A DNA stretch of 64,000 nt, from sequence record MT446413.1. The stretch is one strand, 5' to 3'. Both the position numbers and the translations under genes were made by a program. Positions within the stretch are counted from its first letter, which is position 1; every line of letters begins with the position of its first letter. The notes beneath the pieces were generated by a model. That model ran no database searches. It was not told where the DNA came from and saw only the letters and a list, made by a program, of their open reading frames with translations. Shown here in pieces: positions 47,629 to 64,000 of the stretch. The stretch comes from Escherichia virus TH42.

Positions 47629-47633
47629 ATGAG

Positions 47634-47786: not shown

Positions 47787-48146
47787 CTAGATTAAATCAT
47801 AATACTTAATAATATCAGAGAGCTTAAACTCTCGAATGTCATTCTTGTCATTGTCCCAAGCGGTCATTATCCAACAAGGTTTGCCCCCATTATGATAACG
47901 GGAAGAAGCAACTGAGGTTCGTATAGGAACAACGGAGCGGTCTGCAATTTCACCTCTCCAATTACGATAGCTAAAGCGAAGAACTTGTTTCGTAGATACT
48001 TGATCATAGGTGTTTTCCTTGTTCATAGATTCAAAGACTTCTCTTTCTTCAGGAGTCTCTAGATTTTTTAAATTCTCGTCTTGCATCATTCTCTTCCTTA
48101 GTTTTAATCTTATGACAAGGCTCTTTACACAAGACTTGAAAGCCAT
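47787..48146 (-). CDS. hypothetical protein (start uncertain)
   Basis: Track ORF overlaps the 3' end of the HNH gene; likely starts at an internal Met (MMQDENL, about 48089). Confidence 0.4.
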   Translation of the reverse strand: MAFKSCVKSLVIRLKLRKRMMQDENLKNLETPEEREVFESMNKENTYDQVSTKQVLRFSYRNWRGEIADRSVVPIRTSVASSRYHNGGKPCWIMTAWDNDKNDIREFKLSDIIKYYDLI

Positions 48147-48453
48147 CTACTTCAACCAAAGCTCTCTCGATGATTTCATCCCAAGAAGCTTCATGGTCCA
48201 CTGGAACAATAGGGTTGATATGGTCAACAGCTACCTCTTTGAGAGGAGAGTCATTACCGCACATGGCACACTCATAGTGCATTGCCAGTTTACCAGTTTT
48301 GGGGTTGATCTTACGCTCTGTCTGAGCCTCTTTAAGAGAGTCAAACATAGGCTTCCACTTTCTAGTGAGAGAACGAATCCCTGACTTGATGAAGGAATTA
48401 TATCGTGCTTCAGTCCACTGACCAGAGCATCTAGTTTTCTCAGCTTTCGCCAT
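48049..48453 (-). CDS. HNH endonuclease
   Basis: YECAMCGNDSPLKEVAVDHINPIVP...LCKEPCHKIK = zinc-ribbon plus HNH motif; start moved to internal MAKAEK because the N-terminal 56 residues of the track ORF look non-coding. Confidence 0.6.
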   Translation of the reverse strand: MAKAEKTRCSGQWTEARYNSFIKSGIRSLTRKWKPMFDSLKEAQTERKINPKTGKLAMHYECAMCGNDSPLKEVAVDHINPIVPVDHEASWDEIIERALVEVDGFQVLCKEPCHKIKTKEENDARREFKKSRDS

Positions 48454-48631
48454 AACCCACATCCATGTCAGCATCTTCCCAAATACGTTTGTTAATACGA
48501 TGTGATTCTTTTTCAGCACGAGGGATACGTCCTGTACGACGATCAAATGCTTGGTGTTTAATCTTCTGGTCTTTACGAGACTCACGATTAGAGGAATTTT
48601 CATCATACGAACGATAGTCAAATTTACCCAT
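48440..48631 (-). CDS. hypothetical basic protein (63 aa), uncertain
   Basis: Track ORF between exonuclease and HNH genes. Confidence 0.3.
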   Translation of the reverse strand: MGKFDYRSYDENSSNRESRKDQKIKHQAFDRRTGRIPRAEKESHRINKRIWEDADMDVGYGES

Positions 48632-48641
48632 TATAATATCC

Positions 48642-49487
48642 TTATTCCCAAGATTTATCTAACCACGACCAATCAAAGAGGTCGCCTTCAGCTTGTCCAA
48701 CGAAGAGCAATCGAGCATTTTCTAACATCTTAGCTTCTGCTTCTTCCTCGAACCTCTTATAGTATTCCATTCGTATAATATGATAAAGAGTCCACTTATC
48801 GAATACCTTCTCAATAAGTTTGATAGCAGCTTTGCTACCAATACCCTTACGACGCATAACTAAGTTACCGCCCCACATCATTTCAACTTTCTCACCACAT
48901 CCGGGGATGTTATCTGTACTGTCTCCAATCAACATCTGATAGAAGAAGTTCTGCCATGCTACTTCCTCTGATACGTAATGAGGGGGTACTTCTTTCTGTC
49001 GTTCACCGCAAGCCCAGCGGTAATGCCATCCGGGAGTGATTAACAAATCCTTATCACGAGTACAGATGATTGTGTTCTTTTCTATACGCTGTCGTTCAGC
49101 GAGTGCATCATCTGCTTCTCTACCAAACACCTCAACGTACTGATAATGTTCTTTGATGTAATCACTAACGTTCTGCCAGTGATGTGGTCTTTCTCCCGGA
49201 GGTCGGTTAGCTTTGTAACCTTGTTGCTGAGCAATATCAAATCGGAAGTTACCACCTTCACTAAAATAGAAGACAGTTCTTTCACAACCAGCTCTTGAGA
49301 TGATTACATCAATCTTATGTTGGAGACGTTCAATCAAGAATCCATAATCAACTGGAACACGACCTGTGTCTAGGAAAGGATGCTCTTGTGTAAGAGCACC
49401 AACTTCATACCTAAGAACATCTGCATCCACAATTGCTACTTCAGGATAGATTACATCAGGCATAGAGATCTCTCCGTGTCTGTGCAA
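48642..49487 (-). CDS. 5'-3' exonuclease / flap endonuclease
   Basis: GREADDALAERQ, TRDKDL and GDSTDNIPG motifs typical of the Pol I 5'-exonuclease/FEN family. Confidence 0.75.
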   Translation of the reverse strand: MHRHGEISMPDVIYPEVAIVDADVLRYEVGALTQEHPFLDTGRVPVDYGFLIERLQHKIDVIISRAGCERTVFYFSEGGNFRFDIAQQQGYKANRPPGERPHHWQNVSDYIKEHYQYVEVFGREADDALAERQRIEKNTIICTRDKDLLITPGWHYRWACGERQKEVPPHYVSEEVAWQNFFYQMLIGDSTDNIPGCGEKVEMMWGGNLVMRRKGIGSKAAIKLIEKVFDKWTLYHIIRMEYYKRFEEEAEAKMLENARLLFVGQAEGDLFDWSWLDKSWE

Positions 49488-50052
49488 TACTGTATTCTAA
49501 ATACTCCACCGCCTCTTCTACAGAACAATCATTAAAGAGAAGGTAGGTTGAAAGGTTCGCGCCTTCAATATAGGAACGAGAGTCTCCTTCAAAAGTACAG
49601 CCATCACGATGAATCTGAATTACTCGAACATGGAAATGTTTTTCCAGTTCTTCAACTTCTGCTTTAAATCCACCATCAGAGAATACAATAACATCATTCT
49701 GTGTTGGGATGCGTTGTTGAATACTGCTAACAGCAAGCTTACCCATGCAGGTGTCACCAAACATTGGTTTCAGGTAGTTCTCACTAGTCGCAATCATTAA
49801 ATCTCGAACTGTCTTACCGCCCCATTCAGGACGGCTATATTCTTTCCACTCACGGTCGTTGTATAGCTCCATGAACTCATAAAGAGGAAGTCCTAATGCA
49901 GCAGCAGCCACTCGATACATAGGCTCCTTAAAAGCCTTTACATGCGGTCTAAACTCAGTGTTACCGACGGTCTTCTCTAACCAAGCATTAGCGATTGTAT
50001 CTTTACCACAACCCGGTGGTCCATTCAGAATTACTACTAACGGTTTACTCAT
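49456..50052 (-). CDS. P-loop kinase, putative (deoxy)nucleotide kinase
   Basis: Walker A GPPGCGKDT at residues 11-19; about 200 aa. Confidence 0.5.
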   Translation of the reverse strand: MSKPLVVILNGPPGCGKDTIANAWLEKTVGNTEFRPHVKAFKEPMYRVAAAALGLPLYEFMELYNDREWKEYSRPEWGGKTVRDLMIATSENYLKPMFGDTCMGKLAVSSIQQRIPTQNDVIVFSDGGFKAEVEELEKHFHVRVIQIHRDGCTFEGDSRSYIEGANLSTYLLFNDCSVEEAVEYLEYSIAQTRRDLYA

Positions 50053-50702
50053 TATTGAATCATCCCTTGAAGATCTTCTTTATCAAAGTGCTTCTCTACT
50101 ACAGCTTCATACAGATCACGATTCTCTGCATAACGGCGATAGAAGGTTCCGTGTGAAATTCCTAACTGCTGCTGAATATGATCATGAGGAATTCCAAGGA
50201 AGAGCATAGAGAACATGCTTGCCATTTTCTTGGTATCCATAATATCACTTAAGTCTTGGAAGAAGAAAAAGATTCTAGATTCCAAGAAGGGGTCTCCAGT
50301 AGAGTCATGCTTATCCATCGCAATCTCTAAAGGACTTTCCCATGAGTTCATCTCAGGAGGTCTAAACATATCAGCCTCTGGAATAGAGTAGATACGTCGA
50401 TCTCCAACTGTCTGACGGTTAGAACGAATAGACCAGATGATATTCTTAACACGATAAGTCATGTGTTCAATATCTTTTTCATCAGTGAGCAGAAGTTCTT
50501 CTTGCTTTGCAAACACAAAACGCCAAGCGTTCAGTAACACTTCCTGAGCAACATCCTCTGCTTCGTGATAATCTTTAATGTCATACATGAAATAGCGATG
50601 CACAACTTTCCAGTTCTCTCGATAGAATTCATCGAAGGTTGGATAATATTTAATAGGAATGCCATGAATACGATAGCGTGTGGGTGTTGTCTTCTTCTTC
50701 AT
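50052..50702 (-). CDS. ECF-like RNA polymerase sigma factor (putative)
   Basis: [13 protein letters not shown] resembles sigma region 2; C-terminal [23 protein letters not shown] resembles region 4 HTH. Confidence 0.5.
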
Positions 50703-50726
50703 AAGTCGTCCTTAACTTACTTTGTA

Positions 50727-50951
50727 TTAAACTACACAGAACAAATACATTGCTGTGTCAGGACAAGGGATGGCTGTCTGAATACCACTTACCTTAATCC
50801 ACATATCTTCTTCAGGGTCGTAATAGGCCCAATAGGATTGATCTCCATCTACAAAGAATTTAAAAGTTCGTCCCCAAACCTGATTATTATATTCCCATAC
50901 TGCATGAAGTTGAGTAACACCTTCTGGTATTGTAAGTTCCGCTCTGATCAT
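50727..50951 (-). CDS. hypothetical protein (74 aa)
   Basis: Track ORF; 4-nt overlap with upstream gene. Confidence 0.4.
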   Translation of the reverse strand: MIRAELTIPEGVTQLHAVWEYNNQVWGRTFKFFVDGDQSYWAYYDPEEDMWIKVSGIQTAIPCPDTAMYLFCVV

Positions 50952-51208
50952 TGTATTCCTCTCTCCTTGAGAGCTTTCAGTAAACCATTATGGTTAGCAG
51001 CACAGGTTGTGTAGTTGTCCTGATACCACTCTAATGTTGTTGCAAATGCCGCTCCCTGTGCACTCTGAAGCAAAGGGAGATCAACATCACACTCAGCTTT
51101 TAGGTTTGTTGGTAAGGGCATTAGCTGCCTGCTGTTGTCGCTCGTTGAACAAGCTGACATACTCATCGCTAGCGCACACATTGTAAAAAACTGGCTTAGT
51201 CTTCTCAT
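50948..51208 (-). CDS. outer-membrane spanin (Rz1-like lipoprotein), putative
   Basis: ATG at 51208; signal peptide with Cys at position 20 (MSAC), Pro-rich mature part; start lies inside the i-spanin gene in another frame. Confidence 0.45.
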   Translation of the reverse strand: MRRLSQFFTMCALAMSMSACSTSDNSRQLMPLPTNLKAECDVDLPLLQSAQGAAFATTLEWYQDNYTTCAANHNGLLKALKERGIQ

Positions 51209-51440
51209 AATGCATCTCTTTGTAAACAGTTTCCGTGTTCTTCTTCCAGTTAGTTAAACTGGTTAGAACTTTCTTAGCTACTTCATCAGCAGCCTTAGCT
51301 CTCTCAATCTCAATCTCTTGTTGTTTCTTCTCTTGGTCAAGAGTGTTACTATCATTTCGATATTGTTCAAACTTCATTCCGCCAAAGAATACAAGAGCTG
51401 TAAAGACTAAGAAGCCGATATTGTTTTGAAGCTTTTCCAT
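51093..51440 (-). CDS. inner-membrane spanin (Rz-like), putative
   Basis: Track ORF starts at a GTG (51464) inside the upstream terminator; the ATG at 51440 with GGAG RBS is the likely start; N-terminal TM segment then coiled-coil. Confidence 0.5.
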   Translation of the reverse strand: MEKLQNNIGFLVFTALVFFGGMKFEQYRNDSNTLDQEKKQQEIEIERAKAADEVAKKVLTSLTNWKKNTETVYKEMHYEKTKPVFYNVCASDEYVSLFNERQQQAANALTNKPKS

Positions 51441-51452
51441 TTTAACTCCAAC

Positions 51453-51476
51453 GAAAAAAGCCACCCGAAGGTGGCT
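51453..51476 (-). terminator. rho-independent terminator
   Basis: Perfect AGCCACC-CGAA-GGTGGCT hairpin with A6 on plus strand; between SSB-like gene and i-spanin. Confidence 0.7.
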
Positions 51477-51499
51477 AAGCTATTACAAGGAGAGATTCA

Positions 51500-52240
51500 T
51501 TAGAAAGGGCTGTCATCTTCTTCAAAGGTAGATTGAGGCTCTTCATTAATAGTAGGGATACTTGGAGTCGCGTCTTTCTGTTCAGTGTCAGAAGCGCGAG
51601 TAACTTCACGACCAGCCAGAGGGATGTTTTTAGCATCATTAGCTTGGGTCAGAAGGTTACGTTGGAATGGAAACATAGCTTGATAAGCAGCCAAGTTAGC
51701 GTCAGTTTCAGCATACGGTTCGAAGAAGATCAACTCACTACGAGGAGCACCTACAGCATCACGATACTTAGTTGGGATTGGAGTGATGCTCTTGATAGAG
51801 TTTTTCTTCTCACCAGCTTTGTTGGTGTAAGAGTTAACCAGAATGTTGACAGGCTGACCAAGCAGCATATCTTTGAACCAACCCAAATCACCTTTCAGTG
51901 CTTGAACACTTGGGTCGATCATTTTAATTAGGTTCAGAATACCAGAGTTCTTAGCTCGTGGGTTTACATCGAAGGATTTAAACTGACAAGCAGGACGTGG
52001 GTCCAATGCCTTACCATCATTATCTGTACCAGTTGCGTCAACACCAATCAGTTCAAATGCCAAGTCCATACGGAAAGCTGGGTTCTTAGGAGTAACTGCT
52101 TTGGTCTTAGGGTCAATCCAAGGGTCACGATTGTGAACACCTAAACCTACTACACGAACAATGCGTGCTTCGTACTCGCCATCAGGGATTACATCGTAGT
52201 TGGATTTACGGGATACAGACAGTTCAGGGATCATAGACAT
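51500..52240 (-). CDS. single-stranded DNA-binding protein (putative)
   Basis: 246 aa ending in acidic tail EEDDSPF, like the SSB C-terminal motif DDDIPF; call rests mainly on this tail. Confidence 0.45.
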   Translation of the reverse strand: MSMIPELSVSRKSNYDVIPDGEYEARIVRVVGLGVHNRDPWIDPKTKAVTPKNPAFRMDLAFELIGVDATGTDNDGKALDPRPACQFKSFDVNPRAKNSGILNLIKMIDPSVQALKGDLGWFKDMLLGQPVNILVNSYTNKAGEKKNSIKSITPIPTKYRDAVGAPRSELIFFEPYAETDANLAAYQAMFPFQRNLLTQANDAKNIPLAGREVTRASDTEQKDATPSIPTINEEPQSTFEEDDSPF

Positions 52241-52301
52241 ATTAATATTTCCTTATATAAATTTAAGATTGTTGCTCTCTTTGAGCGGTTGGTATACTAT
52301 A

Positions 52302-52309
52302 TACATTAC
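52302..52309 (-). promoter_or_regulatory. GTAATGTA motif (candidate promoter element)
   Basis: Minus-sense motif 62 nt upstream of the SSB-like gene ATG; same 10-mer ATACATTACA at 10991-11000. Confidence 0.25.
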
Positions 52310-52561
52310 ACCTATACAGATAAGGTTCTATTATACTATAACCTTTTTGGTAGTAGATAACAGTAAGTAGTAATGTATATATTGTATAGCTAGTAAAGCT
52401 ATTGCAGGCTTGTATATTGGGCAATCATCGTAACCCTTGCAAGTACCGAAGGGCAGGAGACACCTGCGAGATAAAAATAGAGAATTAAGGAAACCCTTGA
52501 TTTAGGTTGAGGACTCCTAGGACTTTGATTCTCTATTAAAATCAAAAGAAAACTAATTAAC

Positions 52562-53140
52562 TTACCATTCAATAAACTGATTTAGATTAGTATACTTAAC
52601 TTCTCTCTGAAATTGAAGATTAGATTCTCTCTGTTTAGCAAGAAGGTTAAGTTCTTCTTCCTTTCTTTTCTCAAACTCTTTTCTAATCTCTTGCAGAGAT
52701 ACAGCTCTATAATCAATTTGTTCCATAGAAGTACAAAAATATCTCCAATCTCTGATAGTAGAATTATGAGTATGAGCATAGATATTATATCTTCCTCTCA
52801 TTTCATCAGAGTGAATAGGAATATGAGTTACCCAAAACTCTTTGTATTTATAATCACCACTGATGTGTCTAAAGATTTTCATCATATCAGGGAGAAGTTC
52901 TAATCTGTCATGGTTTCCTAGGACAAGATGTTTCTCTCCTTTTACTTCAGCGATAATATCAAGTGCGTATTTCTCAAACACCCAATCACCTGTAAAGAAA
53001 GTTTTATCGCGTTTAGTAACATGGTCAAAAGCTGCTAGGATAGCTTTGTCGTGTTCTTCAATACTGCTAAACTTCTTTCTAAAATTACAGATGTTACGAT
53101 GGCCTAGGTGACCATCACCTGCAAAATAAACTTCAGCCAT
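52562..53140 (-). CDS. calcineurin-like metallophosphoesterase
   Basis: GDGHLGH, GDWV, LGNHD and AHTHN motifs in canonical order. Confidence 0.7.
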   Translation of the reverse strand: MAEVYFAGDGHLGHRNICNFRKKFSSIEEHDKAILAAFDHVTKRDKTFFTGDWVFEKYALDIIAEVKGEKHLVLGNHDRLELLPDMMKIFRHISGDYKYKEFWVTHIPIHSDEMRGRYNIYAHTHNSTIRDWRYFCTSMEQIDYRAVSLQEIRKEFEKRKEEELNLLAKQRESNLQFQREVKYTNLNQFIEW

Positions 53141-53300
53141 TCTCGTACGTGTCCTCGTAATATGAGTAGTTGAAGGATTCAGCTTTCGTTTCAGCCTCCT
53201 CCCTATCGTCTGTTTCCAGAATCACTCTCCAGCCAGAACCTTCAGGATATTCAGCCCCTTCGTCTAGCCAGACTTTAAACCTTTTAGATAGTACAACCAT
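53133..53300 (-). CDS. hypothetical acidic protein
   Basis: Track ORF 53133..53369 trimmed to internal Met to reduce overlap with 53284..53484. Confidence 0.35.
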   Translation of the reverse strand: MVVLSKRFKVWLDEGAEYPEGSGWRVILETDDREEAETKAESFNYSYYEDTYENG

Positions 53301-53484
53301 CGCAGATATAATCTTCGCTGAGAGACTCTTGTAAGAGTCGGGATTGTTCATCTGACACCAGCTTATCAACCTCTTCTTTCAGAGCCATAAGGTCAACAAA
53401 AGTTAGTAGCTCATTCCGGTCAGCAATCACTTGGTATTTGTAATCACTTTGGGATGCATTCTTTATGATATAGTTATTAGTCAT
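53284..53484 (-). CDS. hypothetical protein (66 aa)
   Basis: Track ORF on block strand. Confidence 0.4.
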   Translation of the reverse strand: MTNNYIIKNASQSDYKYQVIADRNELLTFVDLMALKEEVDKLVSDEQSRLLQESLSEDYICDGCTI

Positions 53485-53744
53485 TACAACAATTCTCTCT
53501 GTTTATTATTGATGACAGTCATCGCTGTGACTGGATTATTTGTTCCGAGATACTCTAGAACAGGTGGGCTACTAGCTGGTTTACCAGCCTCTACATAATT
53601 TTTAACCTTGCCACCTAGAACCGCTAAAGAAGCCTGAGCTTCGGCTTCATCAGTATGAACTCGGTCAACTGTCTTCTTTCCAATCGTGTAAGTGTGAACG
53701 TAAATCATTTTAATCCTTAATAACGAGTGTTGGTACGACTCCAA
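53484..53744 (-). CDS. hypothetical protein (86 aa)
   Basis: Track ORF on block strand. Confidence 0.45.
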   Translation of the reverse strand: MESYQHSLLRIKMIYVHTYTIGKKTVDRVHTDEAEAQASLAVLGGKVKNYVEAGKPASSPPVLEYLGTNNPVTAMTVINNKQRELL

Positions 53745-53902
53745 CCCTCAACGTAACAGCGACCACCTACAAACTTAGTAGGTGCATTAAACTCTTTTGA
53801 GATTCGAGTCTCGCAATCTTCTTTACTATAATCTCCAAGAGCATCCATCACCCAAAGAAATAGAGCAATGACAATAGACCAGATTAGGAACTTTTTCATC
53901 AT
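53717..53902 (-). CDS. small signal-anchored protein (61 aa)
   Basis: N-terminal hydrophobic segment FLIWSIVIALFLWVMDAL. Confidence 0.4.
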   Translation of the reverse strand: MMKKFLIWSIVIALFLWVMDALGDYSKEDCETRISKEFNAPTKFVGGRCYVEGWSRTNTRY

Positions 53903-54132
53903 TTACTTCCTAAAGGAGTTTTAGTGTCTATACCTAAAAATATTTCATATAAACCTGAACTCCTGCCTTTTTTAGAATATGCTTCTTTTTTGAGAGCTTT
54001 GTACCATTTGATTTCATCATCGTGGTGATATCTTCTCCTTTCAATAAGAGCTAGGGATAGAGGAAAGCCTTTTACTTCTTTTCTAACTCTCTCTATGTTT
54101 TTTATATAATTCTGCTTAACTTTTTTCTTCAT
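53899..54132 (-). CDS. hypothetical basic protein (77 aa)
   Basis: Track ORF; 4-nt overlaps on both sides. Confidence 0.45.
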   Translation of the reverse strand: MKKKVKQNYIKNIERVRKEVKGFPLSLALIERRRYHHDDEIKWYKALKKEAYSKKGRSSGLYEIFLGIDTKTPLGSK

Positions 54133-54521
54133 CGTATCACCAGAGGCTCTTCAGAGTACACAGGAGAAGCTATTTCTACTGGAGGTGCTGCTCTAAGATC
54201 GTTAAGTCTTACGCCCTTCAGCATCCCTTCTAGGTGGTCCATTTTAGGAATACCAACAGGGAAGTCATCAATCCAAACATCCACAAAGAAACCTAAGCTC
54301 TGAGTAACAGAATCCTTCTGAACACCATTGCAAAAGATAACCGGGATATCTAGACTAGCAGCATCTGCCAGTAGTTCTTCATTTGTATACCCATTAGGTT
54401 CAGCGAATCGGTAAGTCACGATACGAACATCATGACCACGGGACTTCATAAGTCCTACGATGTGTGTCCACATCTCTTTGTCCGCTGTAAAAGTGTCGTC
54501 ATAATCTAAGCCAATCTTCAT
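54129..54521 (-). CDS. HAD-like phosphatase (putative nucleotidase)
   Basis: N-terminal GLDYDDT matches the HAD DxDxT catalytic motif. Confidence 0.45.
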   Translation of the reverse strand: MKIGLDYDDTFTADKEMWTHIVGLMKSRGHDVRIVTYRFAEPNGYTNEELLADAASLDIPVIFCNGVQKDSVTQSLGFFVDVWIDDFPVGIPKMDHLEGMLKGVRLNDLRAAPPVEIASPVYSEEPLVIR

Positions 54522-54534
54522 ACCAGCTCCTTAG

Positions 54535-54560
54535 ACAAGAAAAGCCACCCGAAGGTAGCT
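54535..54560 (-). terminator. terminator-like hairpin
   Basis: AGCCACC-CGAA-GGTAGCT (one mismatch) with A-rich tract on plus strand. Confidence 0.45.
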
Positions 54561-54802
54561 TATTTATTTTGTGTTTCCAGCTCGATAATACGAACCTTCA
54601 ATCCATTGATTTCTGCATTAGCAGCTTCTAACTTAATCAAACTTTCTTCAGCGTTAGCTTCAATCTGGATAACAGCAGTAGTCAGTTCATACAAAGCTTG
54701 ACGTAAGGTATCCTTACCCATAGAGTGAATCTGTGCAAGGAGATGTTGTTTACCTTCGGTTGTTTCCAGAGTTTCTTTTAATTCTTTAGAGGTTAGAGTC
54801 AC
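54560..54802 (-). CDS. coiled-coil protein (80 aa)
   Basis: Track ORF, heptad-like charged sequence. Confidence 0.45.
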   Translation of the reverse strand: MTLTSKELKETLETTEGKQHLLAQIHSMGKDTLRQALYELTTAVIQIEANAEESLIKLEAANAEINGLKVRIIELETQNK

Positions 54803-54804
54803 TA

Positions 54805-54969
54805 TTAATTCCTTTCGTAGATTTTGAGAACTGTACCACCATCTGCTTCAATCTGAGCAACGACTTCATCGCGCTCTTCATCAGTATAAACCAGTTGGTT
54901 ATGAAATTTACCAGTGGAATCTTGGTAATAGATGTTCCACTTTGGGGCGGGTTTACGAATCAGGTCCAT
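54805..54969 (-). CDS. small hypothetical protein (54 aa)
   Basis: Hand-translated MDLIRKPAPKWNIYYQDSTGKFHNQLVYTDEERDEVVAQIEADGGTVLKIYERN; fills gap between track ORFs. Confidence 0.3.
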   Translation of the reverse strand: MDLIRKPAPKWNIYYQDSTGKFHNQLVYTDEERDEVVAQIEADGGTVLKIYERN

Positions 54970-55153
54970 CATTTAGCTTTCTCCTCTCGTTCTACCCATG
55001 TTTGAAATAATTCACCATAAGCTTTAGCGTCTTCAAAACGACCTTCATCCTGTGCGAGCTTTTGTTGCTTCAAGCACCATTCAGAACTTTTTACTTCTTC
55101 CACTTCCTTGTCTCCTTAAAAAGAACTAATCAATAAGACTAGTTCATTTTCAA

Positions 55154-57001
55154 TTAGTGCGTATGCTGCCAATTCAGTCCAATCTTACAATCTGATGCAA
55201 GAGGGCATTCCATCTTGAGGTATTCACCCGCTTTACGAACACATTCCTCAGTGAGAGTGCGAAGTTTGTTAACATCATCACGATGTACAGTGAACTGACC
55301 TTCATCATGCATGTCGATAACCTTCGCACAACGAACACCATCACGCTCAATCCATTTATTGAGGAATAGCATTGCATACTTCATAACAATCGCCCCAGCG
55401 CTCTGTAAGAGCGTATTTAAGGCTTTGTGTGTCATGACCTTTCCTGTACCGTCACGTCTCATTGTAATACGACGACCGTCAACACCGTAGATGTATCCAC
55501 TTTGTGCTTTCTCTGTCATACGTTCAATAAGGATTGCAATACAAGGGTTCTCTGCTAAGAATCTAGCTCTCATTATAGAACCTTCATCAGCCCCACCACC
55601 AACAATACTACCTAGCTTAGCATCACCAGCTCCGTAGTTGAATGCGTAGATAAACGTCTTAGCATTATCACGGGTAGGCAAGCCAGCAAGTTTCTGGTTA
55701 TGGGAGTGAATATCACCCTGTAAGAGAATATCTCTGTACAATACGGCAGATGCTAAACCGCGTTCAGCTTCTCGTTTCTTAGCTGGGTTATTCTCTTGTT
55801 CTGCCTCTGCCAACATCTCACGACACTCTTTAATAAGGTAGTGAGCCAGCATACGCAGTTCTAACCCTGAACCATCATAACCAAGAAATACTTCATGACC
55901 AGAAGGTATGTAATATTTCAGAGCACCTATCGGTTTGTCTTTCTTGCCCGGTTTTCCCACTTCGTAGATAGTGTTTGTACCTTTTCGTACGTAACACCCA
56001 TCAGGGATATGGTTGGTAATGATGATAGGATTGTGATTACTATCACTTGAGGTACAGTCAGACTGAAATAGACTGCGGCACTCGTGACCAAACAAACCGC
56101 GAGAAGGAATATTAACAACAATACGGTGTTTAAAACGAAATGTCGGAGTAGCGCAGCTATTAGCTTCGGCGGACAACTTACCATCTTCTCGTTCCTTGTC
56201 TATAAGACCATTAATCAAGCCAAGCCTGTGAGCCGCTACAACACGTCTCTTAAGCAAACCTCCCACACCCCCTAGCTCACCCCCAAGACCTTCTTCAAGC
56301 GTCTCCTCGAGGTTTGTAGGAGCTGTAGGCCACTTGTTTGACATGGCTAAAGCTTTCTTAATTTCATCAAAGGTTACAGGCTTCTTCCTGTTCGGATTCA
56401 AGCCTAAACCACTAACGTACGCTTTCATGTAATTGACAGTGTGATAACGGAAGTGTTTATCCAAGAACCGACGAATGTCAGCGTCAATCATCTCAGCTGT
56501 CTGTTTTTCTTTAGCGTTTCCCCGCATCCAAGCAGAATACCAAGCAGCATATGTGCCATACTTCTTCATCGCTTTACGGATTTCGTAAGTATTCCAAGGT
56601 TTCTTGGATGTGTTCCACTCTGGAGGAATAAAGCCTTCGTCCATCAAGGCTTCTTTGATACGTGCATCTTTCGATGGGTCGAAGTCTACATACTCAACGC
56701 AAGTAAACGCCCCACCGATATCTTCCCTTTTAAGACCAACTCTGTCACAATAGAGCTGAGGCCACTTCTGTAAAGAACCTGACTTCTTAAAAGGTTTCGA
56801 ATAAGTTGAACCATCCACCCGCATTTTGGGGAGGAGAGGAATCAGTTCTTTATCAATATTGACAATAATCTCTTTGAGAAGGTGAACAAACCACCGAGCG
56901 TTTCTTCTGTGGAAGTTGACGCCATGCTTCGCCTGCTTTGAGATTATATCAGCGACTGTCATCTCCGTTATGAAAGGTAACTTATCAGGGTTATCCATCA
57001 C
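55154..57001 (-). CDS. DNA polymerase, family A (polymerase domain)
   Basis: Motif A DGSGLELR, motif B RDNAKTFIYAFNYGAG, motif C HDEGQF; no 3'-5' exonuclease motifs seen in the N-terminal 330 aa. Confidence 0.85.
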   Translation of the reverse strand: MMDNPDKLPFITEMTVADIISKQAKHGVNFHRRNARWFVHLLKEIIVNIDKELIPLLPKMRVDGSTYSKPFKKSGSLQKWPQLYCDRVGLKREDIGGAFTCVEYVDFDPSKDARIKEALMDEGFIPPEWNTSKKPWNTYEIRKAMKKYGTYAAWYSAWMRGNAKEKQTAEMIDADIRRFLDKHFRYHTVNYMKAYVSGLGLNPNRKKPVTFDEIKKALAMSNKWPTAPTNLEETLEEGLGGELGGVGGLLKRRVVAAHRLGLINGLIDKEREDGKLSAEANSCATPTFRFKHRIVVNIPSRGLFGHECRSLFQSDCTSSDSNHNPIIITNHIPDGCYVRKGTNTIYEVGKPGKKDKPIGALKYYIPSGHEVFLGYDGSGLELRMLAHYLIKECREMLAEAEQENNPAKKREAERGLASAVLYRDILLQGDIHSHNQKLAGLPTRDNAKTFIYAFNYGAGDAKLGSIVGGGADEGSIMRARFLAENPCIAILIERMTEKAQSGYIYGVDGRRITMRRDGTGKVMTHKALNTLLQSAGAIVMKYAMLFLNKWIERDGVRCAKVIDMHDEGQFTVHRDDVNKLRTLTEECVRKAGEYLKMECPLASDCKIGLNWQHTH

Positions 57002-57014
57002 CCACTCCTTATAA

Positions 57015-57368
57015 TTATTGGTATATTAAATCAGTGAACGCTTGGTTATCCTCGACAATATCTAACTGTTCATAGGATTCCGTTAATTCATCCACATAAA
57101 AGACTGCTGGAATATCTTCTGCTCGCTGTCTACGAGTTTCTCTTCGTTCATTGCTGTTTCTCTGAACCTGTGCAAGTTTCATACCCCACACCTGCTCATA
57201 CAACTCAGGATACTTATCACTAACCACTACAAAGTTTCGAGCTGGTTGGTTTCGGTTAATCTTCGCTGTTAATTCAATAAACTGACGAAACTCTTGAATG
57301 GAGAGGTTGTCATGAATATTGTCCCATTTGAGAACGCAGTGACGTTCTAGGCGTTGAGGTACTGGCAT
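57015..57368 (-). CDS. hypothetical protein (117 aa)
   Basis: Track ORF just upstream of polymerase gene. Confidence 0.5.
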   Translation of the reverse strand: MPVPQRLERHCVLKWDNIHDNLSIQEFRQFIELTAKINRNQPARNFVVVSDKYPELYEQVWGMKLAQVQRNSNERRETRRQRAEDIPAVFYVDELTESYEQLDIVEDNQAFTDLIYQ

Positions 57369-57371
57369 AAC

Positions 57372-57641
57372 TTACTCCACTGTCGGGAAAGGTTTCAGAT
57401 TGTTCATAGCTGTACGAACATCAGCACAGATTTCAAGATCACGATAAGAAAGGAATTTACCATCCTTACCACGAATCATTACATTCGTCCGTGCTGTTTT
57501 ATTAGGTAATAGAGAAATCCCTCCAATAAGATGATTGGTAGGGTGTTGTCCTTGATTAACCTTGTAATCATGAGTCTGAGCGTCACCGTTAAAGAGATGA
57601 TCACGAATTTGGATTAAGCTAATCTTCATATTATGCACCAA
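57372..57641 (-). CDS. hypothetical protein, tandem paralog a (89 aa)
   Basis: NVMIRGKDGKFLSYRD...NNLKPFPTVE parallels the adjacent ORF. Confidence 0.5.
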   Translation of the reverse strand: MVHNMKISLIQIRDHLFNGDAQTHDYKVNQGQHPTNHLIGGISLLPNKTARTNVMIRGKDGKFLSYRDLEICADVRTAMNNLKPFPTVE

Positions 57642-57882
57642 AGTTAGGGAAAGGTTTCAGATTTTCAATAGACTTAGCAATACGCTTAGGAACAGCCTTA
57701 TCGCGGAAGGAGATGAACTTGCCATCAGGACCACGAAGAGCCACGTTAGTACGAGCTGTTGTTGGGTTAAATTGAATCATCTCAACAGAGCTTGTAACAT
57801 TGCTCACGGGGAAGGTGTAGCTTTCAGTTACATCCAGAAAAGGAAAGAAATCAGTTACAGTGATATAAGTTACTTTAGACAT
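57631..57882 (-). CDS. hypothetical protein, tandem paralog b (83 aa)
   Basis: NVALRGPDGKFISFRD...ENLKPFPNFGA. Confidence 0.5.
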   Translation of the reverse strand: MSKVTYITVTDFFPFLDVTESYTFPVSNVTSSVEMIQFNPTTARTNVALRGPDGKFISFRDKAVPKRIAKSIENLKPFPNFGA

Positions 57883-57904
57883 ATTTATTACCTTAGATTA
57901 TATA

Positions 57905-57940
57905 AAAGAAAAGGCCACCCGAAATGGGTAGCCTTATATT
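57905..57940 (-). terminator. terminator-like hairpin
   Basis: AAGGCCACCC-GAAAT-GGGTAGCCTT (one mismatch) with A-tract on plus strand. Confidence 0.4.
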
Positions 57941-58433
57941 AACTTGAGCTTAAAGCATGTCGGATAGCTGTGTGACTTACGCCAAACATCTTACCTAGTG
58001 CTCTTGTTCCATGAGTGGTAGAGCCTTTAACATATAAACTCTTGATCTTCTCCACATCCAATGTGTTGATTTTAGTCATTCCATTAGCATCCCTCTCTTT
58101 ACCAACATTAAGACCTGTTGAAAAAGCATGTTGCATATTTTCATGACCAGTGACCCACTCTAGGTTCTCTAACCTATTATCACTTTTGTTACCATTGATG
58201 TGGTTAATTTGTGGTTTATTTTCAGGGTTAGGTATGAGCACAGAAGCTATAAGTCTGTGAGCTTTCCATCTCCTCCCTTCAAAGTAAACTCTGATATACC
58301 CTTTTTCATCAACAGCCCCTGCCACTTTTCCCGGATGTGATTTATTCCATTTCTTACCTTTAGAGCTAGATTCGGTAAAAATCAATAAACCAGTATCCAG
58401 GTCGTATGACAAGTAGTCGGAAATCGGAATCAT
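57939..58433 (-). CDS. HNH endonuclease (putative homing endonuclease)
   Basis: NHINGNKSDNRLENLEWVTGHENMQHA is a canonical HNH motif. Confidence 0.6.
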   Translation of the reverse strand: MIPISDYLSYDLDTGLLIFTESSSKGKKWNKSHPGKVAGAVDEKGYIRVYFEGRRWKAHRLIASVLIPNPENKPQINHINGNKSDNRLENLEWVTGHENMQHAFSTGLNVGKERDANGMTKINTLDVEKIKSLYVKGSTTHGTRALGKMFGVSHTAIRHALSSS

Positions 58434-58753
58434 TGACTTAGAGCGCCTTTTCTCGATTTGACTCCTCCTGCTGATTTTCCAGCACGATCTCCACTTTTGC
58501 CGCCGTTCGAGCGATTTCCAGAGACTGATTCAACACGTAAGTTACTTGACGCATTAGAACCTCCCGACTTGATTGATCGTTTATGTCCAACATCTTTACC
58601 TCGGACAGCAGCTTTTCCATCGCGCTTTTCAACGATGCGACGTGCACGGTGGCGCTGAGCATCTCCGCTCTTGCTACCAACGCCGGTTTCACCCCTTGCG
58701 ATTGCAGTTCTTCGTTCTTGTGCATAATCACGTTTTGCCTTATCAGTCATCAT
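58430..58753 (-). CDS. hypothetical basic Gly/Arg/Lys-rich protein (frame ambiguous)
   Basis: Start-stop coupled to HNH gene, but 58438..58731 in another frame gives a more ordinary composition; which frame is coding cannot be decided by eye. Confidence 0.3.
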   Translation of the reverse strand: MMTDKAKRDYAQERRTAIARGETGVGSKSGDAQRHRARRIVEKRDGKAAVRGKDVGHKRSIKSGGSNASSNLRVESVSGNRSNGGKSGDRAGKSAGGVKSRKGALSQ

Positions 58754-58797
58754 AACTCCTTAATATATCAGTGTACACTAAGGAGTATACATTATGT

Positions 58798-59535
58798 TTA
58801 GGATTTTTCAGATTCCATTGCTTTAACAATAGCTTTACAGAAACCTGAACGAACAATATCATCTGACTCACCATCAACCAAAGCAGCAAACTCAAACAGG
58901 TTGTGCTTGTCAATGAAGTCAGTAGCCCATTCCAAACCACTCTCACCACGCATGTCATGCTGGTTAGTGTCACCCATACAGAACATCTGAGAGGTTTCAC
59001 CAAGACGAGTCATAATAGAATATGCTTCATCAGGAGTGGTGTTCTGAAACTCGTCAACAATCACAATAGCATCATTGAACGAACGACCACGGAGGTATTC
59101 CAGAGGTACGAACTCAATGTTACCATTACCAATTTGACACTCGTAGAAACCTTTACCGTAACGCTGAGTAATAACATCAACGATTGGCATCAGGTAAGGT
59201 TCGAACTTCTCACGCAATCCGCCGGGAAGTAATCCAAGCGAGTTGCCCATACCAACAGCAGGCCGGCTTAGGATAATCTTTTGAATCTTCCCACTTTTCA
59301 GAGCATCAATAACTGTTGTTGTGATAGCATAGGTCTTACCGCAACCAGCAGGAGCATCCGTAAAGACTACTTGTTTAGTCTTGATAGCATTGAGCAGTTC
59401 GGATTGAAACTGATTCTGAGGGACTACAGGCTTAGCAAGAACAACTTCTTGATACTCACGTTTACCTTTATTAGTCACCTGTTCACCACGACGAGCTGCT
59501 TTCCGTGCTTCTCTACGAGTTTCTCTGCGATTCAT
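58798..59535 (-). CDS. phoH: PhoH-like ATPase
   Basis: Walker A DAPAGCGKTYAITT and downstream DE/ND motifs in PhoH-like order. Confidence 0.8.
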   Translation of the reverse strand: MNRRETRREARKAARRGEQVTNKGKREYQEVVLAKPVVPQNQFQSELLNAIKTKQVVFTDAPAGCGKTYAITTTVIDALKSGKIQKIILSRPAVGMGNSLGLLPGGLREKFEPYLMPIVDVITQRYGKGFYECQIGNGNIEFVPLEYLRGRSFNDAIVIVDEFQNTTPDEAYSIMTRLGETSQMFCMGDTNQHDMRGESGLEWATDFIDKHNLFEFAALVDGESDDIVRSGFCKAIVKAMESEKS

Positions 59536-59713
59536 TTTCTACCTCCAAGTTCTTCATACGTGTAGCTACAGGATTTACACTCTGAACAATGAGTACCTAT
59601 AACCTTAACTTCGACAAATTTCTTATTCTTCCCTTTCGTCGGAGAGCCTTTAGCAAGCTCTCGTATTACTTTCGAGTCCAGATGGAGAAGAGTGGATTCA
59701 CATTTAAAACATT

Positions 59714-60034
59714 TCAGATAGATTTGTCCTTATGTAAACGATATACTTCAGTAGCCATACAAGCAATACGCTCGTCATGAGGGAGATGCATACCAGTAGA
59801 GCCATTCCACCCATTGAACTCTGAATCAAAGAATCCAATAGGCTCAGGATACATCTCTTGCAAAGTGGTTAAGTCATCAGCCACTTGTTGCCATTTATTA
59901 TCAGACCAGATTGGGTCATCCAACCAATAATACAAATAGGAGTGGATAAGCATCTGCGTTCTGTGTCGTTTAATCACTTCAGCAGGACTAATCTCGTTTC
60001 CGTTACCAGTCCTAAATGTATTATCATTAATCAT
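59714..60034 (-). CDS. hypothetical protein (106 aa)
   Basis: Track ORF on block strand. Confidence 0.5.
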   Translation of the reverse strand: MINDNTFRTGNGNEISPAEVIKRHRTQMLIHSYLYYWLDDPIWSDNKWQQVADDLTTLQEMYPEPIGFFDSEFNGWNGSTGMHLPHDERIACMATEVYRLHKDKSI

Positions 60035-60035
60035 T

Positions 60036-60248
60036 TTAAACCTTTTCGATTTTAATTAAATCAACATCAGCCCAAATACCAACAGGTATCAGCTTCTTCT
60101 TGGATTTAAGGGCAACATCATAGATGCTTTGCCAAGGCCAGATAAACACTTCAGAGATAATCTCATAAGGTTCAATCTTGGTGGGGTATGGATTCCTGTC
60201 TGAGATACGGAAAGTAAATCGATGTTTTCCTAATACTAAACCTTTCAT
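60036..60248 (-). CDS. hypothetical protein (70 aa)
   Basis: Track ORF, 1-nt spacing to neighbours. Confidence 0.45.
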   Translation of the reverse strand: MKGLVLGKHRFTFRISDRNPYPTKIEPYEIISEVFIWPWQSIYDVALKSKKKLIPVGIWADVDLIKIEKV

Positions 60249-60458
60249 TTACTTAACCTCAATAATCCCAAGTTTCCAAACATATCCGGGAGAAGAGTCC
60301 TGAACAGCTCCGTATTGAAGAACAACATCACAAGCATCACTACCCATACCATCTAGCATCAGCTGACCACGAGTAGGACGGTCTTTGTAATAAGTTGCTT
60401 TTACTTCTGTGTCGTGAGTCCATTCACTAAAGCATAGACTTAATTTGTAGATTCTCAT
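60249..60458 (-). CDS. hypothetical protein (69 aa)
   Basis: Track ORF; overlaps upstream gene by 4 nt. Confidence 0.45.
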   Translation of the reverse strand: MRIYKLSLCFSEWTHDTEVKATYYKDRPTRGQLMLDGMGSDACDVVLQYGAVQDSSPGYVWKLGIIEVK

Positions 60459-60934
60459 TCCAAAACCCTTTCTTCTAAATCATAAAAGATTTGATTTGTC
60501 CCATTATTCTCAACAAGCACTGTACCATTATCTAACAGAGTAGCAACTTGTGAATAAGGAATGTTCTTTAACATCAGAGCGTTGATGGTTGGCTTATTTT
60601 TGAAGTAAGCGACCGGTTCAACATAGAAGGAAATCCCACGACTCCCTTTGATTGGGGTACTCGAAGACAATACCCAAATTGTTTCTGGCTTGCCCACTTC
60701 TTTTTCAACACCAACCTCAACAAGTGAGTCAGCAGCAAAACCTACAGGTCGCTTAGAAGAGCCAAGCAACCGAACAAACCCCGGCAGTTTTGACATATTA
60801 GACCAACTACCAGTCTTTTCATTAAATACAGGTTTTACATCACCATATACCCAAACTTGATTATCCCAGTCACGGGCTATGTATTTGGCCCAATCAGGAA
60901 CATCATATTCTCTTCCTTCAAAAACAGCTTTCAT
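60455..60934 (-). CDS. hypothetical protein (159 aa)
   Basis: Track ORF on block strand. Confidence 0.5.
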   Translation of the reverse strand: MKAVFEGREYDVPDWAKYIARDWDNQVWVYGDVKPVFNEKTGSWSNMSKLPGFVRLLGSSKRPVGFAADSLVEVGVEKEVGKPETIWVLSSSTPIKGSRGISFYVEPVAYFKNKPTINALMLKNIPYSQVATLLDNGTVLVENNGTNQIFYDLEERVLE

Positions 60935-61129
60935 TTAGATAACCTTGTGCTTATAGATGCTAGGGTTGAAGTAGTGCAACCAGTTTATATACTGTTTCTG
61001 TTCGAGGTAGTGTCTGCAATCATGACAAAAAGCATGACCCAAACCCGTTTCCTCGTTCAGTTTGAAATTGATAAGAAGCTTATGCTTTTTGCATAAGCTA
61101 CATGCTTTAGTGATTTTCACGTAATGCAT
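60935..61129 (-). CDS. small zinc-ribbon-like protein (start moved to internal Met)
   Basis: Track ORF 60935..61243 overlaps thyX by 137 nt; MHYVKITKACSLCKK...CHDCRHY from Met at 61129 reduces overlap to 23 nt. Confidence 0.35.
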   Translation of the reverse strand: MHYVKITKACSLCKKHKLLINFKLNEETGLGHAFCHDCRHYLEQKQYINWLHYFNPSIYKHKVI

Positions 61130-61757
61130 CCCATGAGATTGGGAAAAGTTTACGAAGCTCTTCATCAATAGTTGATGCGAACAAACGCACCTCATACTGA
61201 GCATGGTCTGACAGACGTTGACGACACAACTCTGACCAACCAAATAAAGAACCTGTCCACACCCACTCAGTGATCATGCCCTGAGGCAATACGAACCGAG
61301 CTTGCTCTGGAGCGATAAACTTAATCAATTCATCATACGACTCAAGAGCTGTTTCATATGCTCGATTAATCAGAACTAGTGCAGAGTTTTGTGCTCCTGT
61401 GGTGAGGAGATTCCCCGCACCTGCATGGAGGTCCGAAGGTCTTTCAAAAATCTCTTTAGGGATGAAGAGTTCAACTGCTCCATCTTTATACCGCCGGGAC
61501 ATTTCGTTCCACGAGAATCCAACTTGATGCTTGCCCAACTGTCTCGCAATTGCGATTGGCGCTTTGCATCGGAAGCTAATTGTTGGATGACGGAATGGTG
61601 TGACATGCTTTTCTCTGGCAAGGAACTTGATAAGGCGTTCATCTCGTTCATTTAACTCTCCTTCACGAGTGACCCCAAAGGAAACTCGAGCTGCATTAAC
61701 AACAGATTTATCAGAACCCATTGCTTCGATTAGTGTTGCTTGTAATTGTTCATTCAT
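61107..61757 (-). CDS. thyX: FAD-dependent thymidylate synthase ThyX
   Basis: VVNAARVSF, HVTPFRH and RQLGKHQVGFSWNEMSRRY match the ThyX signature region, with KHQ where RHR is usual (recalled consensus). Confidence 0.65.
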   Translation of the reverse strand: MNEQLQATLIEAMGSDKSVVNAARVSFGVTREGELNERDERLIKFLAREKHVTPFRHPTISFRCKAPIAIARQLGKHQVGFSWNEMSRRYKDGAVELFIPKEIFERPSDLHAGAGNLLTTGAQNSALVLINRAYETALESYDELIKFIAPEQARFVLPQGMITEWVWTGSLFGWSELCRQRLSDHAQYEVRLFASTIDEELRKLFPISWDALRENH

Positions 61758-61771
61758 CCTTGAACTCTTCC

Positions 61772-61984
61772 TTAATAGTAAACTTTTGGTACTACCACAA
61801 AGAAACCAGTGGCTGTCATATATGCACGGTGGATTGAAATCTTCGAATCACGACCTATCTTCTTGAGAGCACGTTTGGTGCATCGTGCAGTTTTACGAGT
61901 AGCGCAAGTAAGAACCCTTGGGTACTCCATCTCTGGATATTTGGAAACAACAGCCCAGAAATACACATCTTTTCCTTGAGTCAT
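61772..61984 (-). CDS. hypothetical protein, tandem paralog (70 aa)
   Basis: FWAVV...RKTARCTKRALKKIG parallels 62000..62215. Confidence 0.45.
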   Translation of the reverse strand: MTQGKDVYFWAVVSKYPEMEYPRVLTCATRKTARCTKRALKKIGRDSKISIHRAYMTATGFFVVVPKVYY

Positions 61985-61999
61985 AACAGCACCCGTTCC

Positions 62000-62215
62000 T
62001 TAATAATGAATCTTTTTATAAATCATGTTGCTTCCACTTTCTGTTTCAATCCCTTTCTGAATTGTAATCTTAGAAGCGCCAGTGTTAGCAATTTTCAAAG
62101 CTCGCTTAAAGCGGCGAGCCTCTCTCCGTGTTGTGTATGAGGAGAAGCTAGGGATTGTGCTATCAAAATTAAACCACTTAACTACCCAAAAAGTAGTCCA
62201 AGGTTTCTTTTCCAT
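62000..62215 (-). CDS. hypothetical protein, tandem paralog (71 aa)
   Basis: FWVVK...RREARRFKRALKIAN parallels 61772..61984. Confidence 0.45.
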   Translation of the reverse strand: MEKKPWTTFWVVKWFNFDSTIPSFSSYTTRREARRFKRALKIANTGASKITIQKGIETESGSNMIYKKIHY

Positions 62216-62216
62216 A

Positions 62217-62492
62217 TTAAATACCTTTCAGAGCCGTGTCTAAAAATGCACGGAGATTAGATTCAGTTTGCATACCTGATAAACTATAATGAGCACCACT
62301 ATTCTTATCAGGGACGACAAAGGCTGGGATACTGCGAACACCATATTCAACGGCTCGCTCTCGACCATCACCTTCAGAGATATTTACTTCTTCAACTTCT
62401 ACACTGTAGTCAGCCACAACCTTCTTAAGCACAGGAGCCATAGCTGCACACGGAGCACATGAATTACTATAAAACTTAATTACTTTACTCAT
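62217..62492 (-). CDS. thioredoxin/glutaredoxin-like redoxin
   Basis: CAPC active-site dyad after first beta-strand (KVIKFYSNSCAPC); start set at ATG 62492 preceded by AAGGA RBS; track ORF extends further from a non-ATG start. Confidence 0.6.
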   Translation of the reverse strand: MSKVIKFYSNSCAPCAAMAPVLKKVVADYSVEVEEVNISEGDGRERAVEYGVRSIPAFVVPDKNSGAHYSLSGMQTESNLRAFLDTALKGI

Positions 62493-62493
62493 T

Positions 62494-62682
62494 CTATTCC
62501 TTGTTAATAAACAGGTTGATATGACGCTGGGTAGCAGGAACAACAATAAAAGATTTATACTGACCTTTTGCTAAGTCATGAGCAATCTTCTTTGTCTGAC
62601 CAAGACCCATCACACAGCCACTAACGATAATGGCATGTGCTTGTAATTCTTCAGGGAGGTTTAATTTCATTATGCAGTCCAC
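62494..62682 (-). CDS. hypothetical protein (62 aa)
   Basis: Track ORF abutting the redoxin gene. Confidence 0.4.
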   Translation of the reverse strand: MDCIMKLNLPEELQAHAIIVSGCVMGLGQTKKIAHDLAKGQYKSFIVVPATQRHINLFINKE

Positions 62683-62891
62683 AGGTGGAGAAGGAAAGGA
62701 ATAACAACAGAGAAAACTACCAGAGCAATGCTACCATGTTTAATAGGTTTGGCATCATTTGGATTTTCTTTAAGCATTTGCTTTTGAGCCAGATAAACAA
62801 TACCACCAACAAGAATTGCCCACACAGACCATACGATTGCTGAAAACATATTCACATCCTTATAAAGAAGTTCGCCCCACCTCTTAAACAA
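62670..62891 (-). CDS. small membrane protein, two TM segments (73 aa)
   Basis: Hydrophobic segments FSAIVWSVWAILVGGIVYL and IALVVFSVVIPFLLHLW. Confidence 0.45.
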   Translation of the reverse strand: MFKRWGELLYKDVNMFSAIVWSVWAILVGGIVYLAQKQMLKENPNDAKPIKHGSIALVVFSVVIPFLLHLWTA

Positions 62892-62912
62892 AGAGACAGG
62901 GCGGAGGTTTGA

Positions 62913-63479
62913 TTAGTAAGACACATCGCCACTAGAGTGGGACATGTTGCTCTTGACGAAGTAACAGAACTTGCCAAGACCTTCATTAATTTCTTGAAGC
63001 ATACTCTGGTCTACTGGATAAGTGCACAAGTCTGAATCAAACTCGTCCATCTTTTCAATGATACACATCAGAGTCATGCACATGTCGGAAAGCATACCGT
63101 CCATGTCGAGATCAGCACTACCTTCTCTGAACCAAGCACAACTAAGATAGCTACTAGCTGTTGCATCCACTTTGATACAGTGATAACGCATTCGCTCAGC
63201 TACTCGGTCTCCTGTTTCACGAGCATAGTCTTCTAATTCATCGAACATACCATGAACACCTTGGAAACCAGCTCCAGAGACGTTCCAGTGGTAATTCTTT
63301 GCTTTGATGTGTAGAAGCTCAAGGTTAGCCTGCACACCGCATAGGATGTGCTCTAGACTGTTACCGCTGATCAGTTTATTCATTCCCTCAAGACGAGAGA
63401 TAGAGGAGTCAGTTGTAGAGAATGGGTTACTAGAACCCACTCGTGTTAGTTCAGGTAAGTCGAAGACATTATTATGCAT
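62913..63479 (-). CDS. Dps/ferritin-like protein (putative)
   Basis: KNYHWNVSGAGFQGVHGMFDELEDYA resembles the Dps N-terminal helix signature (HWNV.G..F..LH...E..Y); recalled consensus. Confidence 0.45.
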   Translation of the reverse strand: MHNNVFDLPELTRVGSSNPFSTTDSSISRLEGMNKLISGNSLEHILCGVQANLELLHIKAKNYHWNVSGAGFQGVHGMFDELEDYARETGDRVAERMRYHCIKVDATASSYLSCAWFREGSADLDMDGMLSDMCMTLMCIIEKMDEFDSDLCTYPVDQSMLQEINEGLGKFCYFVKSNMSHSSGDVSY

Positions 63480-63819
63480 TAGGAGTCTCTCCTTCTAAAT
63501 TGGTTGAATTGGCTACGTTACGAGCAATGTTGTCCATGACCTGCTGGGTAATAACAATGCAATTCTGTGGGTCTACAGACTTAGAACGCCCCATTTCAGG
63601 GTCATAGACTTTGACTCGCTTGGCTGTTGAGCCAGTAACTTGCAACACTTTGAGAAGATAACCTTGATTTCCAATAGACCATGCAACAACATCACGATTC
63701 TTGATATAACGACCAAGCATATCACGATGATAGAACTGCTGCATAACTTTAGCTTTGCTAATCTCTTCAGATGGCGGGGCCACTTTACTCAAATCTAACA
63801 TAACTCTCTCCTGTTTCAT
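63472..63819 (-). CDS. hypothetical protein (115 aa)
   Basis: Track ORF; 8-nt overlap with downstream gene. Confidence 0.5.
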   Translation of the reverse strand: MKQERVMLDLSKVAPPSEEISKAKVMQQFYHRDMLGRYIKNRDVVAWSIGNQGYLLKVLQVTGSTAKRVKVYDPEMGRSKSVDPQNCIVITQQVMDNIARNVANSTNLEGETPNA

Positions 63820-63871
63820 ACAATATTCTTATACTGTATATACATTTGAGAGTTATCATATCTACTACCAA

Positions 63872-64000
63872 CTAGTAATAAACCTTGCTGGATATGAATC
63901 CAGCACTGTTCTGGATATTTTCAATCCAACGATGAATCTCCACCTTTTCAGCGATTCCTAAAGCTTTTGTAGCTTTTATAGTTTTCTTAGCAAGACGAGC
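63872..64000 (-). CDS. hypothetical protein, 5' end outside window
   Basis: Minus-strand frame open from window edge (ARLAKKTIKATKALGIAEKVEIHRWIENIQNSAGFISSKVYY) to stop at 63872-63874. Confidence 0.3.
   Translation of the reverse strand, partial: ARLAKKTIKATKALGIAEKVEIHRWIENIQNSAGFISSKVYY

Follow-up and report, generated by a model that had tools for sequence, protein, structure and literature searches.

The polymerase gene and its surroundings

By nucleotide comparison, the window (the whole 64-kb stretch of DNA that was analyzed) is that of a phiEco32-like (Kuravirus) E. coli podophage; megablast of positions 52000–62000 returned 98 phage records, headed by TH34 (Kuravirus, 97% identity), followed by Bas88 and ECBP2. 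At 55154–57001, the minus strand holds an open reading frame for an intact family A DNA polymerase, nearest to T7 gp5. Counted from the GTG at 57001, the frame comprises 615 aa. The true start is probably the ATG at 56998, giving a product of 614 aa, which was favored over the GTG chosen by the ORF finder because of the spacing of the Shine–Dalgarno sequence (Table 1) and because a 614-aa product is called in phage Bas88 and on public contigs. Pfam DNA_pol_A (PF00476) matches residues 362 to 612 (E 4e-24; 85.7 bits against a cut-off of 34.3), with nothing else notable and no exonuclease family detected in the ORF by Pfam at E ≤ 1, and PHROG 17 (“DNA polymerase”) covers residues 10 to 614 (E 4e-81). 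The closest PDB sequence is T7 gp5 (E 1e-33, or 1e-62 with a 75-sequence profile). An AF2 model of the whole polymerase (pLDDT 90.9, pTM 0.80) was compared with the PDB by Foldseek, and the top matches were all T7 gp5 (E 4e-25, probability 1.00), i.e., the right-hand fold of palm, thumb, and fingers. Polymerase motifs A, B, and C, which the original prediction had called clear in the C-terminal half, are indeed present, far beyond what chance would give, and the motifs and their catalytic residues are invariant across 75 homologs.

The polymerase gene in the window is uninterrupted, while in some relatives it is broken. In ECBP2 (L001 9615–12066), an HNH gene divides it into an N-terminal part of 570 aa and a C-terminal part of 51 aa. 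Among metagenomic homologs, many (P0014–P0017, P0086, and others) are fragments of ∼450 aa in which 73% of the query is covered, and the LUZ24 polymerase gene has been reported to contain an intron (PMC3517423).

Table 1. Positions of features in and around the polymerase gene, in window coordinates
Feature	Coordinates	Strand	Residues	Basis or remark
5′–3′ (FEN-type) exonuclease, putative separate gene	48642–49463	−		Pfam 5_3_exonuc_N, E 4e-6, below gathering score
Polymerase subunit, predicted split T7-gp5-like family A DNA polymerase	55154–57001	−		Pfam, PHROG, PDB, AF2/Foldseek
Motif C, MHDEGQ	55295–55312	−	564–569; D566/E567	Aligns to T7 VHDEIQ, D654/E655
Motif B/O-helix, RDNAKTFIYAFNYGAG	55625–55672	−	444–459; R444/K448/Y452	Aligns to T7 RDNAKTFIYGFLYGAG, R518/K522/Y526
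Motif A, GYDGSGLELR	55853–55882	−	374–383; catalytic D376	Aligns to T7 GIDASGLELR, D475
First palm helices and enlarged thumb	55982–57001	−	N-terminal ∼340 aa	Not an exonuclease domain
Shine–Dalgarno sequence, AAGGAG	57005–57010	−		Read from sequence; 6 nt before ATG 56998, only 3 nt before GTG
Free-standing HNH endonuclease	57939–58433	−		Pfam HNH_3, E 4e-10; among small ORFs upstream of polymerase gene
Phage thioredoxin (91 aa)	62217–62492	−		Pfam Thioredoxin, E 1e-12; ∼5 kb upstream of polymerase

The neighborhood is as the original prediction had described it, with small ORFs of no recognized function (117, 89, and 83 aa upstream of the polymerase gene; 44, 55, and 80 aa downstream) and an HNH endonuclease, here assigned to HNH_3. 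The site of this HNH gene is occupied in TH34 and on contigs L007, L008, and L012, and empty in ECBP2, Bas88, L013, and L014. The gene looks like a mobile insertion, in keeping with homing-endonuclease traffic. Other relatives carry HNH genes at other nearby sites, e.g., beside ThyX. The possibility that the HNH gene split an ancestral polymerase was considered and rejected: the ORFs around it (117, 89, 83, and 107 aa) fall in PHROGs of unknown function, and because they lack exonuclease similarity and the HNH gene is absent from several relatives, it is not what separates exonuclease and polymerase halves. Two adjacent minus-strand ORFs just upstream of the polymerase gene (57372–57641 and 57631–57882; 89 and 83 aa) both belong to PHROG 6814 and share a C-terminal motif (...TARTNV.(I/L)RG.DGKF.S(Y/F)RD...NLKPFP), and are therefore read as a tandem duplication.

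Further replication-related genes lie on either side. The FEN-type gene has counterparts annotated “exonuclease” in ECBP2 and Bas88 and corresponds to the third activity of Pol I, which here also has a gene of its own; the 5′–3′ exonuclease is likewise given as a separate subunit in the literature (PMC9965538). Downstream of the polymerase gene, at 51500–52240 (minus strand), lies an ORF of 246 aa (PHROG 6599) in the position taken by a gp2.5-like SSB in LUZ24-like phages. Its product ends, like T7 gp2.5, in an acidic stretch closed by an aromatic residue (...FEEDDSPF), and comparison with the MHN1 gp2.5-like protein and with PDB chains detected no similarity; calling it an SSB is only a guess. 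On the upstream side, the 188-aa product of 62913–63479 (minus strand) is labeled “DNA binding protein” and has a weak Ferritin/Dps Pfam match on public contigs, so that a Dps-like protein appears to be encoded in the cassette of replication and nucleotide-metabolism genes that separates exonuclease from polymerase, as described below.

The N-terminal region of the polymerase

The observation that prompted the original prediction was that the N-terminal 330 aa show none of the Exo I, II, or III motifs, and this was upheld by motif, Pfam, and exonuclease-HMM searches. No Exo I/II/III pattern occurs in these residues, and an HMM built from T7-type exonuclease domains had no match in the polymerase ORF. 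A 3′–5′ exonuclease fold in this region, which had been named in advance as the contrary result, was not detected by profile search. Structure prediction of the N-terminal region, also suggested at the outset, gave a model that matches only polymerase parts of family A enzymes and no exonuclease. The polymerase chain thus lacks the N-terminal DEDD 3′–5′ exonuclease (PF01612) found in proofreading enzymes of the Pol I and T7 types.

What occupies these residues instead is apparent from alignment to T7 gp5. The family profile is collinear with the T7 protein over four segments (residues 7–34 with T7 212–239, 91–137 with 318–365, 255–306 with 407–460, and 358–602 with 470–704), and the polymerase therefore starts where the T7 polymerase domain starts, just after the exonuclease domain. 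By BLASTP, residues ∼54 to 135 align to T7 gp5 283–362 with 28% identity, a stretch that in T7 gp5 takes in part of the thumb's thioredoxin-binding insertion. Residues ∼136 to 240 form an additional, mostly helical thumb insertion of ∼90 to 100 aa without a T7 counterpart, of which LUZ24-like homologs have a shorter version. The N-terminal ∼330 aa are N-terminal palm helices and an enlarged thumb, not a degenerate exonuclease.

The enlarged thumb, with its homolog of the thioredoxin-binding region (∼54–135) and its extra insertion (∼136–240), could conceivably serve as a docking platform for an exonuclease acting in trans, for the phage thioredoxin, or for both, although we regard this as a tentative suggestion that is more doubtful than probable. 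If true, it would describe a T7-like holoenzyme in which all subunits, including the processivity factor, are phage-encoded and separately expressed. The thioredoxin has homologs with at least 60% identity in 97 phage records, a number close to that of the phiEco32-like group, and Pseudomonas (the host of LUZ24-like phages) is not among the top ten host genera of the thioredoxin matches. In phage Privateer, a phage thioredoxin has been proposed to serve the polymerase as in T7, in a processivity role (PMC7881722).

A stand-alone exonuclease gene on a window-identical contig

Within the 64-kb window, tblastn with the ECBP2 exonuclease protein gave only noise and no counterpart, and a five-sequence exonuclease HMM run with all filters off against 625 six-frame window segments reached a best E of 0.45. 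The exact 614-aa polymerase was found on four public contigs of ∼77 kb each. One of these, Logan contig SRR11772958_447 (L012; 76,756 bp), is 100.000% identical to window 45154–64000 over 18,847 bp without a mismatch, and a second comparison with window 56472–64000 was again identical. At L012 3519–4067, it carries a gene for a stand-alone DEDD exonuclease of 182 aa (PF01612, DNA_pol_A_exo1; LVKKIFAFDIEGD...YCEQDV...NWKM) that retains Exo I (FDIEGD; DIE), Exo II (GHNIIDFD), and Exo III (YCEQD). The gene lies directly downstream of, and overlaps, a primase/helicase gene and is upstream of the polymerase gene on the same strand, with 9,736 bp between its stop and the polymerase start (L012 13804). 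In window-equivalent coordinates, it would occupy ∼66,735–67,283, i.e., ∼2.7 kb beyond the window end. We infer its presence in the source genome from the identity of the contig over the overlap rather than from the window itself. The search outside the window for a separate 3′–5′ exonuclease, as originally proposed, was thus successful on the identical contig. The original prediction had left open whether the exonuclease was missing, encoded outside the window, or highly divergent; the second of these stands, and neither in this genome nor in its relatives can the exonuclease be regarded as missing.

The exonuclease is 98.9% identical to ECBP2_0072, whose Pfam DNA_pol_A_exo1 score of 29.2 bits exceeds the gathering cut-off of 23.6. 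Its residues 4 to 156 align to T7 gp5 1–178 (32% identity, E 3e-16) with the equivalents of D5, E7, D65, and D174 kept. In a multiple alignment, the exonuclease C terminus reaches approximately T7 gp5 residue 200 and, in the profile alignment, the polymerase N terminus begins at approximately residue 212. The pair thus covers gp5 from end to end, divided in the interdomain linker, and the two proteins together hold every gp5 element.

On L012, the genes follow one another on one strand in the order DnaB_C primase/helicase (596 aa), 182-aa PF01612 protein, 478-aa protein, dCTP deaminase, small ORFs, Dps/ferritin-like protein, thioredoxin, ThyX, ligase-like protein, PhoH, HNH, three small ORFs, and polymerase. 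The interval from exonuclease to polymerase holds ∼25 genes; dCTP deaminase and ThyX belong to nucleotide metabolism, and thioredoxin and PhoH are among the rest. The same gene order was seen on five further contigs. At 60% identity or more, the exonuclease has homologs in 97 phage records, in agreement with the 98 that share the local DNA. In a search of 5.8 billion proteins, the best 120 polymerase homologs (∼370–618 aa) were all exonuclease-less (120 of 120); their sources are phages of Escherichia, Shigella, Aeromonas, Vibrio, and Pseudomonas, and several bear the name “DNA polymerase part II”. Primase/helicase, exonuclease, a variable insert, and polymerase also follow one another in this order in phages of the LUZ24-like, Privateer-like, and other groups, with inserts of 1.9 kb in MHN1 (LUZ24-like), 4.5 kb in Proteus phage P59, 9.0 kb in ECBP2, and 9.7 kb in TH34. 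In T7, genes 4 and 5 stand in that order, separated by small 4.x ORFs. Probably the gene underwent fission at the linker, or else two separate genes fused in the T7 lineage; a nucleotide-metabolism cassette would then have grown between the halves.

The best explanation, and one that we consider very probable, is that the enzyme is a split T7-gp5-type polymerase whose exonuclease is encoded 9.7 kb upstream, outside the window, and would join it in a non-covalent holoenzyme. On this reading, the ORF product is only the polymerase part (palm, thumb, and fingers) of a T7-gp5-type replicative DNA polymerase, the proofreading 3′–5′ exonuclease domain has its own 182-aa gene beside the primase/helicase, and the two proteins would associate non-covalently during replication to form a proofreading holoenzyme, as the fused T7 domains do within one chain. 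That exonuclease and polymerase act together as one enzyme is suggested by the homology to T7 gp5 and by the co-conservation of the two proteins.

Three other readings were weighed against this split enzyme. A polymerase truly devoid of proofreading, having lost its exonuclease as in Taq Pol I or Pol theta/nu, would account for the lack of exonuclease homology in the ORF and in the 64-kb window; it is made highly improbable by a canonical DEDD gene with all catalytic residues on the window-identical contig and in every relative examined. It is scarcely credible that the N-terminal ∼330 aa are an exonuclease diverged or degenerated beyond motif recognition. There is room for one, with ∼330 aa preceding the conserved palm core and four short beta strands among them, but the region is collinear with the thumb and palm of T7 gp5 (212–460) and not with the exonuclease (1–200), offers no arrangement of D-x-E plus Y-x3-D that fits a DEDD enzyme, and belongs to a genome whose genuine exonuclease domain sits elsewhere.

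The main rival to survive, which we nonetheless consider unlikely, is that the 182-aa exonuclease works on its own, e.g., in recombination, degradation of host DNA, or the processing of primers, and is not the proofreader, leaving the polymerase unedited in cis. The distance between the genes (1.9–9.7 kb) and the variable content of the spacer would agree with such independence, and a literature search found no biochemical work on the split enzyme and no data on interaction of its subunits. Against it, fused T7-type polymerases provide, in their N-terminal domains, the closest homologs that the exonuclease has beyond the split clade. It is held unlikely above all because the two proteins tile gp5 perfectly, with neither gap nor overlap, and because they are found together even in phage groups whose polymerase subunits share only ∼40% identity.

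The novelty implied by the original prediction was not borne out, as the split arrangement is already known, being annotated in RefSeq and published (PMC9965538, PMC3517423). Beyond annotation, the result matters little: the gene product should be labeled [quoted passage not shown] and not proofreading-deficient. When a scan is confined to a window, a “missing domain” may reflect where the window stops, as it does here, with the partner gene 2.7 kb farther on. Phages of the split clade offer a possible natural system for studying proofreading in trans by a family A replicase, an opportunity that has been visible in the literature since 2008–2012.

Comparison with known systems

The division of labor proposed here is reminiscent of the E. 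coli Pol III core (alpha plus epsilon/DnaQ), in which polymerase and DEDD proofreader likewise reside on separate polypeptides. The analogy is functional only, since Pol III belongs to family C and is unrelated to family A, and the subunit interaction is demonstrated in Pol III and only deduced for the phage enzyme. The best match in both sequence and structure is the T7 gene 5 polymerase (PDB 1T7P, 2AJQ). Motifs A, B, and C are near-identical in the two proteins (RDNAKTFIY...), and part of the thioredoxin-binding region also aligns to the window polymerase. In T7, exonuclease and polymerase form one chain of 704 aa, whereas here they are two genes, split at approximately gp5 residues 200 to 212.

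The phiEco32-like or Kuravirus phages (Gordonclarkvirinae) likewise have a separate 3′–5′ exonuclease subunit, as in the pairs ECBP2_0050 and ECBP2_0072 or YF01 gp49 and gp70. In RefSeq, ECBP2_0072 is a 182-aa “DNA polymerase exonuclease subunit”; its gene adjoins that of the primase/helicase and precedes the polymerase gene by 9 kb. The window polymerase is 99.8% identical to that of TH34 and 86 to 95% identical to those of other members of this group (70 to 95% when the split polymerases of phiEco32-like/LUZ24-like phages are compared as one set, before the ∼40% of LUZ24-like “part II”), and the synteny of primase/helicase, exonuclease, ∼9 to 10 kb of genes, and polymerase is shared. There is no substantive difference from this group; the polymerase is intact here and HNH-interrupted near its 3′ end in ECBP2, and the HNH gene upstream of the polymerase is carried here and lacking in some relatives. 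For Kuravirus-like phages, [quoted passage not shown] were described in 2023 (PMC9965538).

The LUZ24-like phages (Bruynoghevirus), with their “DNA polymerase part I” and “part II”, show the same design at greater distance. Their polymerase is also exonuclease-less and ∼40% identical over 99% of the length, and their stand-alone exonuclease gene also adjoins the primase/helicase gene, upstream of the polymerase; they differ in a spacer of only ∼1.9 kb and a polymerase of ∼545 aa. The split has been stated for all LUZ24-group phages, with the first report, for phiEco32, credited to Savalia et al. 2008 (PMC3517423, 2012).
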